Below, one piece after another: positions 23,334 to 25,977 of a DNA stretch of 64,000 nucleotides. The DNA lies in sequence record KY703222; one strand, given 5' to 3'. The DNA is from Escherichia phage phiC120. Under the pieces are notes generated by a model. That model was given only the letters and a program-made list of their open reading frames with translations. It made no database searches and had not been told where the DNA came from. The translations under genes and the position numbers were made by a program. Numbering within the stretch: position 1 is the stretch's first letter; every line of letters begins with the position of its first letter.

Positions 23334-23570
23334 TTATAGTGTTCCATATACTCGAGTTGCTTCAACAAGACCATCACTGCCTAATTTAAGGCTAGTAATC
23401 TGGTCACCATCTTTAGGATTAACGATTATGAGAAAAGAACGTGGAGATTCTTGAATAACTCGTAATGTTGCATCCTGGAAACGTTCAGACACTTTATTGA
23501 TGAGTGCTTGAGCAAATTCTTTTACTTTAATCTGAAATTCGTGTACTGTAATTGGGGTTTCACTTAGCAT
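23334..23570 (-). CDS. hypothetical protein (78 aa)
   Basis: ORF preceded by early-type promoter and RBS GAGGAAA. Confidence 0.45.
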   Translation of the reverse strand: MLSETPITVHEFQIKVKEFAQALINKVSERFQDATLRVIQESPRSFLIIVNPKDGDQITSLKLGSDGLVEATRVYGTL

Positions 23571-23599
23571 TTCGATTTCCTCATTGTGTTGGTAGAGTT

Positions 23600-23629
23600 A
23601 TAGTATCACAACTCCACCATGTTGTAAAC
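23600..23629 (-). promoter_or_regulatory. early-type promoter (GTTTAC -35, TACTAT -10)
   Basis: Minus strand GTTTAC-N18-TACTAT; shares the TAGTATCACA core with the element at 13141. Confidence 0.5.
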
Positions 23630-23905
23630 TTAAATTGCAAAACATTTAATTTCTTGTGAATCGAAATCAACTTCACACTGAATTACTAGTTCGGCATCAA
23701 GACCAAACACAACAATCGCATGAGCCGAGCTGGGCAGCAATGTAACAGACACAGAATCCACTTGGTCAGGCACCAGAGTATTCAAAACGTAGAGTAGTTC
23801 AGAGTGGACCTTAAGCTCAGTAGCAGTATCCAGCTTATCAAAGAAATGATTTGCGATAATCTGGCTAAAAACTACCTTTACAATTTCAGAATATTTAGGG
23901 AACAT
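23630..23905 (-). CDS. hypothetical protein (91 aa)
   Basis: ORF in the cd-pseT accessory cluster. Confidence 0.45.
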   Translation of the reverse strand: MFPKYSEIVKVVFSQIIANHFFDKLDTATELKVHSELLYVLNTLVPDQVDSVSVTLLPSSAHAIVVFGLDAELVIQCEVDFDSQEIKCFAI

Positions 23906-23912
23906 AATTACC

Positions 23913-24137
23913 TCAGTGCACAGTATTTACTTTAACTCGAACAACAAATTGCTCGGTCGGTTCACCTACAGGAACAAACTCTACATGATATTCGCCTTTG
24001 TAACGAGTATTCAGGTCGTTACGAATTTCGGTAAGCTTGTTGATTAATGTAGAACTCATATTAAGTCCTACTAGTTTACGAAGCATTTTGTATGCTTCAT
24101 CTTCGATTTCATGATGTTTATCGTACATAATTTTCAT
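23913..24137 (-). CDS. hypothetical protein (74 aa)
   Basis: ORF in the cd-pseT accessory cluster. Confidence 0.45.
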   Translation of the reverse strand: MKIMYDKHHEIEDEAYKMLRKLVGLNMSSTLINKLTEIRNDLNTRYKGEYHVEFVPVGEPTEQFVVRVKVNTVH

Positions 24138-24309
24138 TTAACCATTCAATTGCCTGGTCGACGTTATCAAATATACCACCGTCCAAACGTTCTTCATGCT
24201 CATAGTCCAGCACATCAATACCGAACTGTCCATTTACTAAAGGCCAGGCTACAAACAAATATTCTTTATGCTGTTCGATGGCCTCAATCACTTCATATAA
24301 TCGTTTCAT
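24118..24309 (-). CDS. hypothetical protein (63 aa)
   Basis: ORF abutting pseT. Confidence 0.4.
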   Translation of the reverse strand: MKRLYEVIEAIEQHKEYLFVAWPLVNGQFGIDVLDYEHEERLDGGIFDNVDQAIEWLNENYVR

Positions 24310-25208
24310 TAAAAATCACCATGGTTAACTTGCCAACATTCTAAACCAATACGTCGCCACATTTCCACAACCTGGTTACGGTCATCAACGGCCAATTTCA
24401 CATCATAATAAGGAGCAATACAGTTCCAAAAGAGTTCTTCCTTAACAACATCGTCCTTACGAGTGTCACCTTGATTACGTTGAATATGCATTTCCCACGG
24501 AATAGAAAACGTGTCCATCCATTTTTTAGTTGCTTCGTAATAACACATTGAATCTTCTTTAGTTCCAGATTCACGACCACTTACAGTAATAATTGTATAC
24601 CCGGCCTGATGAAGCATCTTAACATATTCGACAACCATAGGGTTCGGGGCATCTGTGGATAGTTTATGTAACTCATACGGGCCGCGAGCAACATGTAGAG
24701 CTAAAGTCCCGTCAAGGTCGAAGATAACCGCTTTAGGTTTACCCGGAGTTCCTTTATAAACCGGAAGTCCTTTGTATTCACGCATACGAGAATACATCGA
24801 ACGTAGAACATCGATAGGAACGGCCTTTGTGCCGCGCTTGGCATTACGTTTAACTAATTCAGTCCATGGAACATCGAACACTTGATATACAACTTCATGA
24901 CCCCACTGCTTAGCATATTCTTCCCAGACAAGACGGCGTTCAGGATTCAAGTTAGTGTCAGAAATAATAACACCCTTAGTTCCGTCTTGGCAGAGAATCA
25001 TATGTGCCGCATCGTGTTGCATATAAGTTACGATACTTTCTTTCTTTTTAGTATATTTGTACTCGTCACGTTCTTCGTGGCCCATGATGGATTGACGATA
25101 ATCGTCGCGGTTGATATTAAAGAACCCAGGATTCTTAGCAATAAATTCACGAGCCCAAGTGCTTTTACCAGACCCCGGACAACCTACAGTCAAAATAATC
25201 TTTTTCAC
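24309..25208 (-). CDS. pseT: polynucleotide 5'-kinase / 3'-phosphatase
   Basis: 299 aa; [29 protein letters not shown]... (P-loop) and C-terminal phosphatase FDLDGTL; close to remembered T4 Pnk. Confidence 0.95.
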
Positions 25209-25396
25209 AGTTTTACTACCTCTTCAGCAAATTCAAATTGTCCACCAAGAATTTTAGCAATTTCACGTCCTAGTTCAGCACCTTTCTTGCAATCTTGCAT
25301 AGTCCAAGACTCACCATTCTGTGATTTACGAAGAGCCCGTGTATTGATATCTGCTACAAGCGTATGGATTAACTTATCAATTTTGGCTTGGTCCAT
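25205..25396 (-). CDS. hypothetical small protein (63 aa)
   Basis: ORF with ATGA-type overlap to pseT. Confidence 0.4.
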
Positions 25397-25695
25397 TATT
25401 TTATTCCTAAGAAAGTTTCAAGAATACGAATGTTATGCTCGCGCCGGTCTTTATTAATTTCAGCAACGTTTTTATTAATTGACGTACTTCTAACGTTTGA
25501 AGAAATAAATTTAATCATATGACTTTTGAGTTGTTGCAAATCCAACCCTTTTTCTTTAGCAGCTTTACGAAGAGCTTTACCTGCTTCATCTAGTGCCTTT
25601 GCAGCATCTTTGTCATAATTGTCAAGTGACGTTCCACGGCAGATATCAATATACTCATCAGACCGTTTTATGTAATTCTCTAGTAATGTTTTCAT
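25396..25695 (-). CDS. hypothetical protein (99 aa)
   Basis: ORF preceded by early-type promoter. Confidence 0.4.
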   Translation of the reverse strand: MKTLLENYIKRSDEYIDICRGTSLDNYDKDAAKALDEAGKALRKAAKEKGLDLQQLKSHMIKFISSNVRSTSINKNVAEINKDRREHNIRILETFLGIK

Positions 25696-25718
25696 TTAGA
25701 TTTCCTCAATTATCCATA

Positions 25719-25753
25719 GGAGCATTATACTCTGCTCCCGAGAGTTTGTAAAC
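25719..25753 (-). promoter_or_regulatory. early promoter (GTTTAC -35, TATAAT -10) with -10 inside inverted repeat GGAGCA/TGCTCC
   Basis: Minus strand GTTTAC-N18-TATAAT; element GGAGCAGAGTATAATGCTCC recurs near 54006. Confidence 0.55.
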
Positions 25754-25977
25754 TATTTTACTAAAGATTCGATATACTCATGAAGAGCTTTAGTCGCTAC
25801 TGCCCACTTGTTTTGGTATTCATTTTTCAGATTAGCACGAGACTGAACTAACAAGCGGTCATTAGTCGGAGGCAAAGATTCTAATCGTTGAATCTGGCGC
25901 CCATAAATCATAGCCGCCATTTCAGATTCATAGATAAGCCCTTTAATGTATTCATGCTGTTCTTTAGTCATTGGCAT
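25753..25977 (-). CDS. hypothetical protein (74 aa)
   Basis: ORF between the spanin pair and pseT. Confidence 0.4.
   Translation of the reverse strand: MPMTKEQHEYIKGLIYESEMAAMIYGRQIQRLESLPPTNDRLLVQSRANLKNEYQNKWAVATKALHEYIESLVK

Follow-up and report, generated by a model that had tools for sequence, protein, structure and literature searches.

The genomes of T4-like phages are otherwise collinear, but their clusters of small early ORFs of uncharacterised function vary (Nolan et al. 2006, PMC1524935). T4 (NC_000866) encodes the small ORFs cd.2, cd.3, cd.4 and pseT.1, and a CRISPRi-ART screen in T4 scored all four as 'Not Fit', that is, knock-down was without a fitness effect (PMC11879866 supplement). 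These data are for T4, and three small genes of phage RB69 (NC_004928), ORF227c, ORF230c and ORF231c, fall outside their coverage. In our literature search, pseT.1 was mentioned in no paper found, and the strings ORF227c/230c turned up in Nolan et al. 2006 alone, where they belong to phage Aeh1.

We analysed a window of 64,000 nucleotides from Escherichia phage phiC120 (KY703222). The window shares 97-98.5% DNA identity with Mosigvirus genomes, including CCU7, OLB35 and Bas47, and its sequence identifies it as a Mosigvirus, an RB69-like T-even phage. Seven minus-strand ORFs of 63-99 aa are found at the places and sizes given in the original prediction, four between a DAHP synthase gene and pseT and three between pseT and the o-spanin gene. 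The features of the region are listed below.

22221-23213, minus strand: DAHP synthase, borders the first interval
23222-23377, minus strand: eighth small ORF, 51 aa from GTG (41 aa from the ATG at 23347), left off the earlier list
23334-23570, minus strand: cd.2 ortholog, 78 aa (Pfam DUF7320, phrog_1504)
23629-23600, minus strand: predicted T4-type early promoter in the cd.3/cd.2 gap, GTTTACA-17-TACTAT, extended TG
23630-23905, minus strand: cd.3 ortholog, 91 aa, acidic, pI 4.45 (Pfam DUF7355, phrog_1695)
23913-24137, minus strand: RB69ORF227c ortholog, 74 aa (phrog_3609), absent from T4
24118-24309, minus strand: cd.4 ortholog, 63 aa, very acidic, pI 4.3 (phrog_2360)
24309-25208, minus strand: pseT, polynucleotide 5'-kinase/3'-phosphatase, 299 aa, GTG start, splits the two intervals
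25205-25396, minus strand: RB69ORF230c ortholog, 63 aa (phrog_8683), absent from T4
25396-25695, minus strand: RB69ORF231c / RB32ORF217c ortholog, 99 aa, basic, pI 9.4 (phrog_2364), absent from T4
25753-25724, minus strand: predicted T4-type early promoter in the pseT.1/ORF231c gap, GTTTACA-17-TATAAT, 11/12 matches to the sigma-70 consensus
25753-25977, minus strand: pseT.1 ortholog, 74 aa (phrog_2347)
25968-26258, minus strand: o-spanin (pseT.2), borders the second interval

The seven ORFs correspond one-to-one, and in collinear order, to RB69 cd.2, cd.3, ORF227c, cd.4, (pseT), ORF230c, ORF231c and pseT.1. In RB69 their order and strand are identical, six of them share 93-100% aa identity with the window's genes, and the spanin, alc and rnlA flanks are also the same. 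RB69 differs from the window in its cd.3 allele and in lacking, between cd.2 and cd, the DAHP-synthase cassette and an associated cd.2 relic. When phage records were searched with a 3.1-kb DNA query (window:23200-26300), 149 records covered at least 80% of it and about 148 matched at 90-99% DNA identity. The description of these ORFs as unassigned is therefore superseded by the RB69 annotation and by these records. The pseT gene itself is 75% identical to T4 PseT at the amino acid level and matches phrog_505 (E=4e-125). Because its small ORFs are conserved early genes already databased gene for gene, the interval is an ordinary cd-pseT-spanin early region of an RB69-like T-even phage.

The gene content had also been expected to be unlike that of T4. 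This expectation fails for four of the seven ORFs, which have T4 orthologs in T4 order: cd.2 (67% aa identity), cd.3 (64%), cd.4 (52%) and pseT.1 (82%). The PHROG assignments of these four are those of the T4 genes themselves. Orthology of all seven to characterised T4 ORFs, which would have spoken against the original prediction, was not observed, as it extends to these four only and the four are uncharacterised. T4 lacks ORF227c, ORF230c, ORF231c and the DAHP synthase; the three small genes are present in 240-707 other T-even genomes. Conversely, T4 cd.1, cd.5 and 31.2 are missing from the window, where the DAHP-synthase cassette replaces cd.1. T4 pseT.1 abuts pseT with no promoter gap, whereas the window has such a gap after pseT.1.

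A synteny table of T4, RB32, RB69, IME08, STML-198, AS6, MHG19 and the window showed that gene content varies while orthologs remain collinear, in agreement with the proposal of a variable accessory region. We did not detect cd.4 in AS6 or pseT.1 in IME08, and RB32 is without cd.4; all three phages retain pseT and cd. From one lineage to another, whole genes are gained or lost, and alleles are replaced with breakpoints at gene boundaries. The window is a further instance of the plastic accessory regions of T4-like genomes, with no difference in kind; the records of RB69, T4 and hundreds of further T-even phages already document which genes lie here, how they are ordered and how they vary.

The seven ORFs are short, carry no functional motifs and, in two cases, have a doubtful start codon. 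Some or all of them might then be chance open frames in AT-rich DNA that are not expressed. The comparative data argue strongly against this. Each ORF matches one PHROG family at E values from 1e-33 to 1e-49, and each family is present in 240-920 phage records. Each frame is kept intact by hundreds of genomes, at aa identities as low as 30-40%. Pairwise dN/dS is far under 1 for each ORF, at 0.00-0.27 across the seven except for cd.4 against STML-198 (0.41), and pseT gives 0.03-0.11 at comparable divergence. Good Shine-Dalgarno sequences or coupled stop/start codons are found for most of the seven. A true chance ORF in the same DNA, a 191-aa frame antisense to pseT at 24882-25457, behaves differently: stop codons interrupt it in all relatives, RB69 among them. 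These data indicate that all seven ORFs are under purifying selection and are true protein-coding genes. The chance-frame reading is already effectively refuted, and we give it almost no credence.

The predicted products are 7-11 kDa, with pI values from 4.3 to 9.4. None of the seven has a transmembrane-grade stretch, the highest Kyte-Doolittle peak being 1.58 (cd.3) against a cut-off of 1.6 in a 19-residue window, and all seven are predicted to be soluble proteins. Their families are restricted to T-even phages. No paralogy was detected by hhalign between ORF227c and cd.3, ORF227c and cd.2, cd.2 and cd.3, or pseT.1 and ORF230c.

Some of the ORFs had been predicted to have early promoters of their own, and two candidate sites bear this out. 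Both are consensus matches to the motif GTTTAC-N16-18-TANNNT, both have the sequence features of the sigma-70, AsiA-sensitive early promoters of T4, and together they fill the only two intergenic gaps of the interval. The motif occurs 17 times in the window where 3.4 are expected, a five-fold excess, and the minus strand holds 15 of these. In the T4 record, an early promoter is annotated as a misc_feature between cd.2 and cd.3, which is the homologous gap. The first gene past the 25753-25724 site is ORF231c; the ribosome-binding site and start there, TGAGGAAATCTAAATG, are nearly identical to those of cd.2, the first gene past the 23629-23600 site (ribosome-binding site GAGGA). Stop and start codons overlap at five junctions: pseT.2/pseT.1, ORF231c/ORF230c, ORF230c/pseT, pseT/cd.4 and cd.4/ORF227c. 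The ORFs are predicted to lie in two sigma-70-type early transcription units, starting at 25753 and 23629. A repeat scan found only the shared ribosome-binding-site and promoter strings, and an Rfam scan of 22000-27500 gave no match.

We further characterised the individual genes. The cd.2 ortholog is 98.7% identical to RB69 cd.2 and matches DUF7320 over residues 1-77 (E=7e-36; 122.5 bits, cut-off 27) and phrog_1504 (E=3e-37), the PHROG of T4 cd.2. The full-length profile match and the syntenic position place it in the T4 Cd.2 family, which occurs in 793 phage records and gives dN/dS values of 0.10-0.15. In a PDB profile search its best match was to designed ankyrin repeats (E=0.015), with none below E=0.01.

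The cd.3 ortholog matches DUF7355 (116 bits, cut-off 27), and its full-length profile and its place upstream of cd.2 across the early-promoter gap assign it to the T4 Cd.3 family (dN/dS 0.04-0.11). It is just 67% identical to RB69 cd.3 at the amino acid level, whereas its neighbours are 93-100% identical to RB69. DNA identity to RB69 is 62-68% within cd.3 and 92-100% further out. Mosigvirus cd.3 exists as two discrete alleles, 67% identical, which are exchanged as a precise gene-sized patch. Only 40 of 920 records carry the window's allele at 90% aa identity or more. Compared with RB69, the window has had a minority allele of cd.3 swapped in.

ORF227c, ORF230c and ORF231c show full-length similarity to the RB69 genes at the same map positions, with PHROG matches at E values from 1e-40 to 1e-49, and belong to those families. 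ORF227c is 93% identical to the RB69 locus. Because its homologs begin at MYDKHH, its start is probably the ATG at 24128 (71 aa). An AlphaFold model predicts a helix-helix-strand-strand fold. The Pfam B5-domain tag on two apparent homologs of ORF227c (P0043 and P0049) was rejected, as these are chimeric metagenome assemblies joined to a pheT fragment.

The cd.4 start overlaps the pseT stop codon (TAATG). Its product is 100% identical to RB69 cd.4, aligns with T4 Cd.4 over 63 aa (E=7e-26) and matches phrog_2360 (E=2e-33), which also holds T4 cd.4; the family is found in 685 records. Full-length similarity and a place just downstream of pseT put it in the T4 Cd.4 family. Its dN/dS ranges from 0.00 (Bas47 and RB69) through 0.17 (IME08) to 0.41 (STML-198), and is saturated against T4 and MHG19.

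The stop codon of ORF230c overlaps the GTG start of pseT (GTGA). ORF230c is 98% identical to RB69ORF230c and is found in 240 records, with dN/dS of 0.18-0.27. The pseT.1 ortholog is found in 814 records, with dN/dS of 0.00-0.04. It is 100% identical to RB69 pseT.1, matches T4 PseT.1 at E=5e-41, and falls in the T4 PseT.1 family by full-length similarity and by its place just downstream of the o-spanin gene pseT.2. Its start may be at 25971 (72 aa), in which case it would overlap the stop codon of the o-spanin gene (ATGA).

ORF231c is 96% identical to the RB69 locus. The RB69 record annotates it from an internal start (78 aa), yet the full 99-aa frame is conserved. RB32ORF217c and IME08 orf212 belong to the same family (64% and 56% aa identity) and occupy the same place immediately upstream of pseT. 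In the Tequatrovirus members, the loop that follows helix 1 is longer by 7 inserted residues, and in RB32 the gene overlaps pseT.1, leaving no intergenic promoter gap, unlike in the window. An AlphaFold model predicts an all-helical, four-helix protein. The most conserved segment, residues 38-65, is helix-turn-helix-like with the core A-x3-G-L-x4-L, and in the model the invariant A46, G50 and L56 and the near-invariant L51 map to helices 2 and 3 and the turn between them. The best PDB profile match, a weak one, is to the IS3-type helix-turn-helix protein 2jn6 (E=0.067). With its basic pI, four predicted helices and conserved core, ORF231c is the best candidate among the seven for a nucleic-acid-binding regulator. 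An exhaustive HMM search of 1.84 billion proteins with the ORF231c profile returned 6 proteins, all but one of them close relatives; the exception is a weak match (E=2.4e-4) to a long protein, P0060, of 1288 aa.

The Bas47 (AlbertHofmann) record labels its 99-aa ORF231c ortholog a 'putative homing endonuclease'. If the label were right, ORF231c would be a homing endonuclease or what remains of one, and a mobile nuclease gene would drive the variability of the interval. Cassette-like gains and losses are seen in the region, and RB32 and IME08 have a larger ORF of 175-186 aa between cd.2 and cd.3. However, scans of Pfam, NCBIfam and PHROGs gave ORF231c no match to the GIY-YIG, HNH, LAGLIDADG or PD-(D/E)XK families that would mark it as an endonuclease. 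Its 99 residues are all-helical in the model, and it shows purifying selection over its full length and a constant position, unlike the mobile Seg/Mob genes. We find the Bas47 label unsupported and a homing-endonuclease origin very improbable.

The statement that none of the seven has a recognisable motif stands in that we found no function, but two of the ORFs do match Pfam families. Scans of Pfam, NCBIfam and PHROGs with all seven returned only DUF7320, DUF7355 and PHROGs of unknown function, and PDB sequence and profile searches with all seven gave nothing below E=0.01. The structure prediction and remote-homology searches that had been recommended yielded predicted folds for ORF231c and ORF227c, and fold searches with these two AlphaFold models gave no function. 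A BFVD fold search found orthologs in T4-like phages only. Weak matches to MoaD, PRK13696, COMMD8, PAAT-like and E3_binding (E 0.02-0.1) were non-significant and were set aside.

We consider it likely that the genuine genes of this plastic, RB69-like early region encode dispensable accessory (host-interaction) proteins. By analogy with T4 early accessory genes, and given the negative results above, the host-interaction or counter-defence class is the most likely one for these products. Small early proteins of this class would bind a host or phage macromolecule stoichiometrically soon after infection, either to take over the host or to counter its defences. Phage growth on laboratory E. coli would not require them, and their benefit would show only on particular hosts. 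The very acidic cd.3 and cd.4 products would be candidate protein or DNA-mimic inhibitors.

Some of the proteins might instead be accessory subunits or regulators of neighbouring enzymes rather than independent host-targeting factors. One such case would be ORF231c, ORF230c or cd.4 acting with PseT (and RnlA) to repair tRNA cut by an anticodon nuclease; another would be cd.2-cd.4 joining dCMP deaminase in the complex that makes dNTPs. ORF231c lies directly upstream of pseT in four divergent T-even lineages, Mosigvirus, RB32, IME08 and MHG19, down to 40% aa identity; ORF230c, pseT and cd.4 are translationally coupled through overlapping stop/start codons; and a HIDEN-SEQ preprint reports a conditional importance of PseT when the hosts are clinical isolates. 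However, T-even genomes are generally syntenic, and adjacency is therefore weak evidence. The T4 PseT/RnlA pathway is fully functional without ORF230c or ORF231c, and pseT and cd persist in AS6, IME08 and RB32 despite the gene absences noted above. In Klebsiella phage JD18, moreover, an ORF230c homolog (55% aa identity) lies in the motA-asiA region, far from pseT. An enzyme-partner role is thus unlikely, and we favour dispensable host-interaction proteins.

Within the host-interaction reading, it is possible, though we lean against it, that at least one of the small proteins is a specific inhibitor, trigger or decoy of a host anti-phage defence. The best candidates are cd.3, with its two exchangeable alleles, and ORF231c, with its fixed place beside pseT in four lineages. 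ORF231c could act alongside PseT/RnlA against anticodon nucleases. If such a role is true, allele exchange and gene gain and loss would track the defences in the host population. The value that remains in the region is a delimited list of seven conserved, T-even-restricted families that are predicted to be early and have no assigned function. It would be reasonable to include these families when BASEL-type phage collections are screened for counter-defence or host take-over. Three leads stand out: the helix-turn-helix-like basic protein beside pseT, the cd.3 allele swap and the DAHP cassette.

The DAHP-synthase cassette occupies the slot of T4 cd.1, and its insertion junctions and donor lineage are readable from sequence. 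The enzyme is of the AroF/G/H type (330 aa; Pfam DAHP_synth_1, E=5e-75) and is found in 211 phage records; in the window, as in CIP9 and F48, the two relatives that we inspected, its gene lies between cd.2 and cd. Relative to RB69, the insertion spans approximately 22225-23318, and both of its junctions carry TAATGA(A/G)AGCTA. The eighth small ORF, which is annotated in the Bas47 record as a 41-aa CDS, matches DUF7320 positions 43-76 (E=1.3e-6). Its best alignment is with the C-terminal end of the cd.2 product encoded ahead of the DAHP synthase in CIP9 and F48. The ORF is a remnant of a foreign cd.2 allele, from its 3' half, and arrived with the cassette. The junction repeat and the cd.2 relic, together with the cd.3 allele swap, add detail to the known pattern of plasticity in these genomes.

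The interval at 20.5-28.5 kb of the window is a tightly packed minus-strand gene array. It contains seven small ORFs around pseT, and the ORF listing reproduces their predicted coordinates and sizes exactly. We compared the encoded proteins by BLASTP with those of the corresponding T4 stretch (T4 125000-150000, 25 kb) and counted each family in a 50,697-record phage collection.

Minus-strand gene array around pseT (ORF listing), with amino-acid identity to T4 proteins and family counts in the phage collection
20579-20827, minus, rIII
20952-21284, minus, gene 31
21342-21650, minus, 31.1
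21640-22221, minus, cd
22221-23213, minus, DAHP synthase, AroF/G/H-type, 330 aa
23334-23570, minus, cd.2 ortholog, 78 aa; 67% identity to T4 Cd.2; 793 phage records
23630-23905, minus, cd.3 ortholog, 91 aa; 64% identity to T4 Cd.3; 920 phage records
23913-24137, minus, ORF227c, 74 aa; 336 phage records
24118-24309, minus, cd.4 ortholog, 63 aa; 52% identity to T4 Cd.4; 685 phage records
24309-25208, minus, pseT
25205-25396, minus, ORF230c, 63 aa; 240 phage records
25396-25695, minus, ORF231c, 99 aa; 707 phage records
25753-25977, minus, pseT.1 ortholog, 74 aa; 82% identity to T4 PseT.1; 814 phage records
25968-26258, minus, o-spanin gene
26255-26611, minus, i-spanin gene
beyond the i-spanin gene, minus, alc, then rnlA

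The ORFs had been described as unassigned and as differing in content from T4. The first description is not supported, and the differences from T4 are narrower than the second suggests. Four of the seven have clear collinear T4 orthologs (cd.2, cd.3, cd.4 and pseT.1), and their PHROG families agree with those that the CRISPRi-ART supplement (PMC11879866) lists for T4. ORF227c, ORF230c and ORF231c have no match in T4 125000-150000 and are annotated in the RB69 record as RB69ORF227c, RB69ORF230c and RB69ORF231c. RB69 carries the identical set of seven genes in identical order, with 93-100% amino-acid identity to the window proteins except for cd.3. All seven genes are already recorded in RB69 and its many relatives. 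Essentially all carriers of the seven families in the collection are T-even-like phages of Enterobacterales. Many genomes of Tequatrovirus also carry ORF231c (RB32ORF217c, RB6 and others); T4 itself lacks it. RB69ORF231c (RB69 record L003, 10317-10616) is given as 78 aa, beginning at an internal Met; conservation extends over the entire 99-aa frame, with 96% amino-acid identity to the window, and the shorter version is probably a start-codon mis-annotation.

At the DNA level, many Escherichia/Shigella T-even phages in the genus Mosigvirus, among them CCU7, OLB35, AlbertHofmann/Bas47 and the LF82 series, share 97-98.5% identity with the 3.1-kb interval. A single match spans at least 80% of the query in 149 phage records, and 148 records match at 90-99% identity.

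We compared the two slots flanking pseT in nine T-even genomes.

Gene contents of the cd-pseT and pseT-spanin slots
T4: cd.1, cd.2, cd.3, cd.4, cd.5; then pseT.1
RB32: cd.1, cd.2, 175-aa ORF, cd.3; then ORF231c-like, pseT.1
RB69: cd.2, cd.3, ORF227c, cd.4; then ORF230c, ORF231c, pseT.1
Window: as RB69 plus DAHP synthase; then ORF230c, ORF231c, pseT.1
IME08: cd.1, cd.2, 186-aa ORF, cd.3, ORF227c, cd.4; then ORF231c-like, no pseT.1

In STML-198, AS6 and MHG19 the pseT-spanin slot is occupied by ORFs of other, unrelated kinds, accompanied in MHG19 by recognisable ORF231c-like and pseT.1-like genes. Klebsiella phage JD18 has its ORF230c homolog (55% amino-acid identity; L006, 4001-4180) among the motA-asiA early genes, not adjoining pseT, indicating that ORF230c has relocated from one early region to another across T-even genera. 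Together with the differing slot contents, this supports the original prediction of a variable accessory region. The jumbo Serratia phage Moabite also has an ORF230c homolog.

Two local events distinguish the window from RB69. cd.3 (23630-23905) is a precise gene-sized patch with 62-68% DNA identity to RB69; identity further out is 92-100%. The window allele occurs at 90% or more amino-acid identity in 40 of 920 records, with none at 80-90%, and the RB69 allele is nearer to that of T4 (79%) than the window allele is. The window allele is a minority class, swapped relative to RB69. Between cd.2 and cd, an insertion of about 1.1 kb (roughly 22225-23318) carries the DAHP synthase and a 51-aa ORF (23222-23377). 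The sequence TAATGA(A/G)AGCTA, which is where the stop and start of the flanking genes meet, is common to the two junctions. The 51-aa ORF matches the C-terminal half of the cd.2 type that precedes DAHP synthase in phages CIP9 (Enterobacter) and F48 (Klebsiella). It is a relic of the 3' half of such a cd.2, brought along with the cassette. A lineage of this kind is therefore the probable source of the cassette. DAHP synthase is present in 211 T-even-like phage records and lies between cd.2 and cd in the window and both relatives inspected (CIP9, F48).

Purifying selection acts on all seven ORFs. In pairwise Nei-Gojobori comparisons to Bas47, RB69, T4, RB32, IME08, STML-198, AS6, JD18 and MHG19, dN/dS was 0.00-0.27 for each where dS was unsaturated, with cd.2, cd.4 and ORF231c exceeding this only against their most divergent partner (0.39-0.54); over the same distances pseT gave 0.03-0.11. 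In most of the seven, either a GAGG-type ribosome-binding site is present or the start overlaps the stop codon before it (TAATG, GTGA, ATGA). As a control, a 191-aa TTG-start ORF antisense to pseT and ORF230c (24882-25457, plus strand) is a chance ORF, because stop codons interrupt its frame in every relative (RB69, T4, RB32, IME08, STML-198, AS6, MHG19).

As predicted, the seven proteins have no recognisable functional motif: Pfam returned only DUF7320 (cd.2) and DUF7355 (cd.3), NCBIfam gave no significant match, and profile searches of PDB sequences with each family alignment gave none below E=0.01. No 19-residue hydrophobic window reached the usual 1.6 cut-off in any of the seven (maximum 1.58, cd.3), and no relationship was found in four family pairs compared. 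Two of the proteins, cd.3 (pI 4.45) and cd.4 (pI 4.32), are very acidic, and ORF231c is basic (pI 9.4). Knocking down cd.1-cd.5, pseT and pseT.1 in T4 had no effect on phage fitness in the laboratory host (PMC11879866 supplement). Most likely, the seven would be early accessory proteins, dispensable to the phage and acting by binding host or phage macromolecules.

Of the seven, ORF231c is the strongest candidate nucleic-acid binder. Its AlphaFold2 model has four helices (pLDDT 78, pTM 0.63), and helix-turn-helix spacing is seen in its most conserved stretch (A46, G50, L51, L56, polar face of helix 3). Among the PDB profile matches the top one is an IS3-type helix-turn-helix protein, at only E=0.067. 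Searched exhaustively against 1.84 billion representative proteins, the ORF231c HMM gave only six hits. The Bas47 label "putative homing endonuclease" is without support. The sole non-phage-sized match to the profile in the exhaustive search, P0060 (1288 aa, E=2.4e-4), consists of six short stretches at query positions 5-44 and is probably low-complexity helical. The ORF227c model (pLDDT 86) has a helix-helix-strand-strand layout. Pfam B5 (pheT) tags on two metagenome-assembly "homologs", P0043 and P0049, were rejected; both are chimeras in which the first 56 residues of ORF227c run into part of a Phe-tRNA synthetase, mis-assembly being the most likely cause.

Just two true intergenic gaps occur in the interval, and both contain a predicted T4-type early promoter on the coding strand, in agreement with the suggestion that some of the small ORFs have their own.

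Predicted T4-type early promoters
25753-25724, coding strand, GTTTACA-17-TATAAT, intergenic gap
23629-23600, coding strand, GTTTACA-17-TACTAT preceded by TG, intergenic gap
27159-27130, GTTTACAAAC...TACTAT, within the first 21 codons of the 187-aa "alc" ORF

The T4 record places an early promoter in the same gap as 23629-23600, and the genes immediately following the two gap promoters have ribosome-binding sites and starts that are nearly identical, TGAGGAAATC(G/T)AAATG. The site at 27159-27130 indicates that the 187-aa ORF (26599-27162) is over-extended and truly starts at Met22 (about 27099), the equivalent of the Alc start in T4 and Bas47. A generic sigma-70 scan showed no enrichment over shuffles (10 vs 10.7). 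Across the whole 64-kb window, GTTTAC-N16-18-TANNNT occurs 17 times against 3.4 expected (0 of 100 shuffles reach 17), with 15 of 17 sites on the minus strand. Taken as a map, these sites mark candidate early transcription units, with examples elsewhere at 13169, 19970, 28342, 49218, 54303 and 54815.
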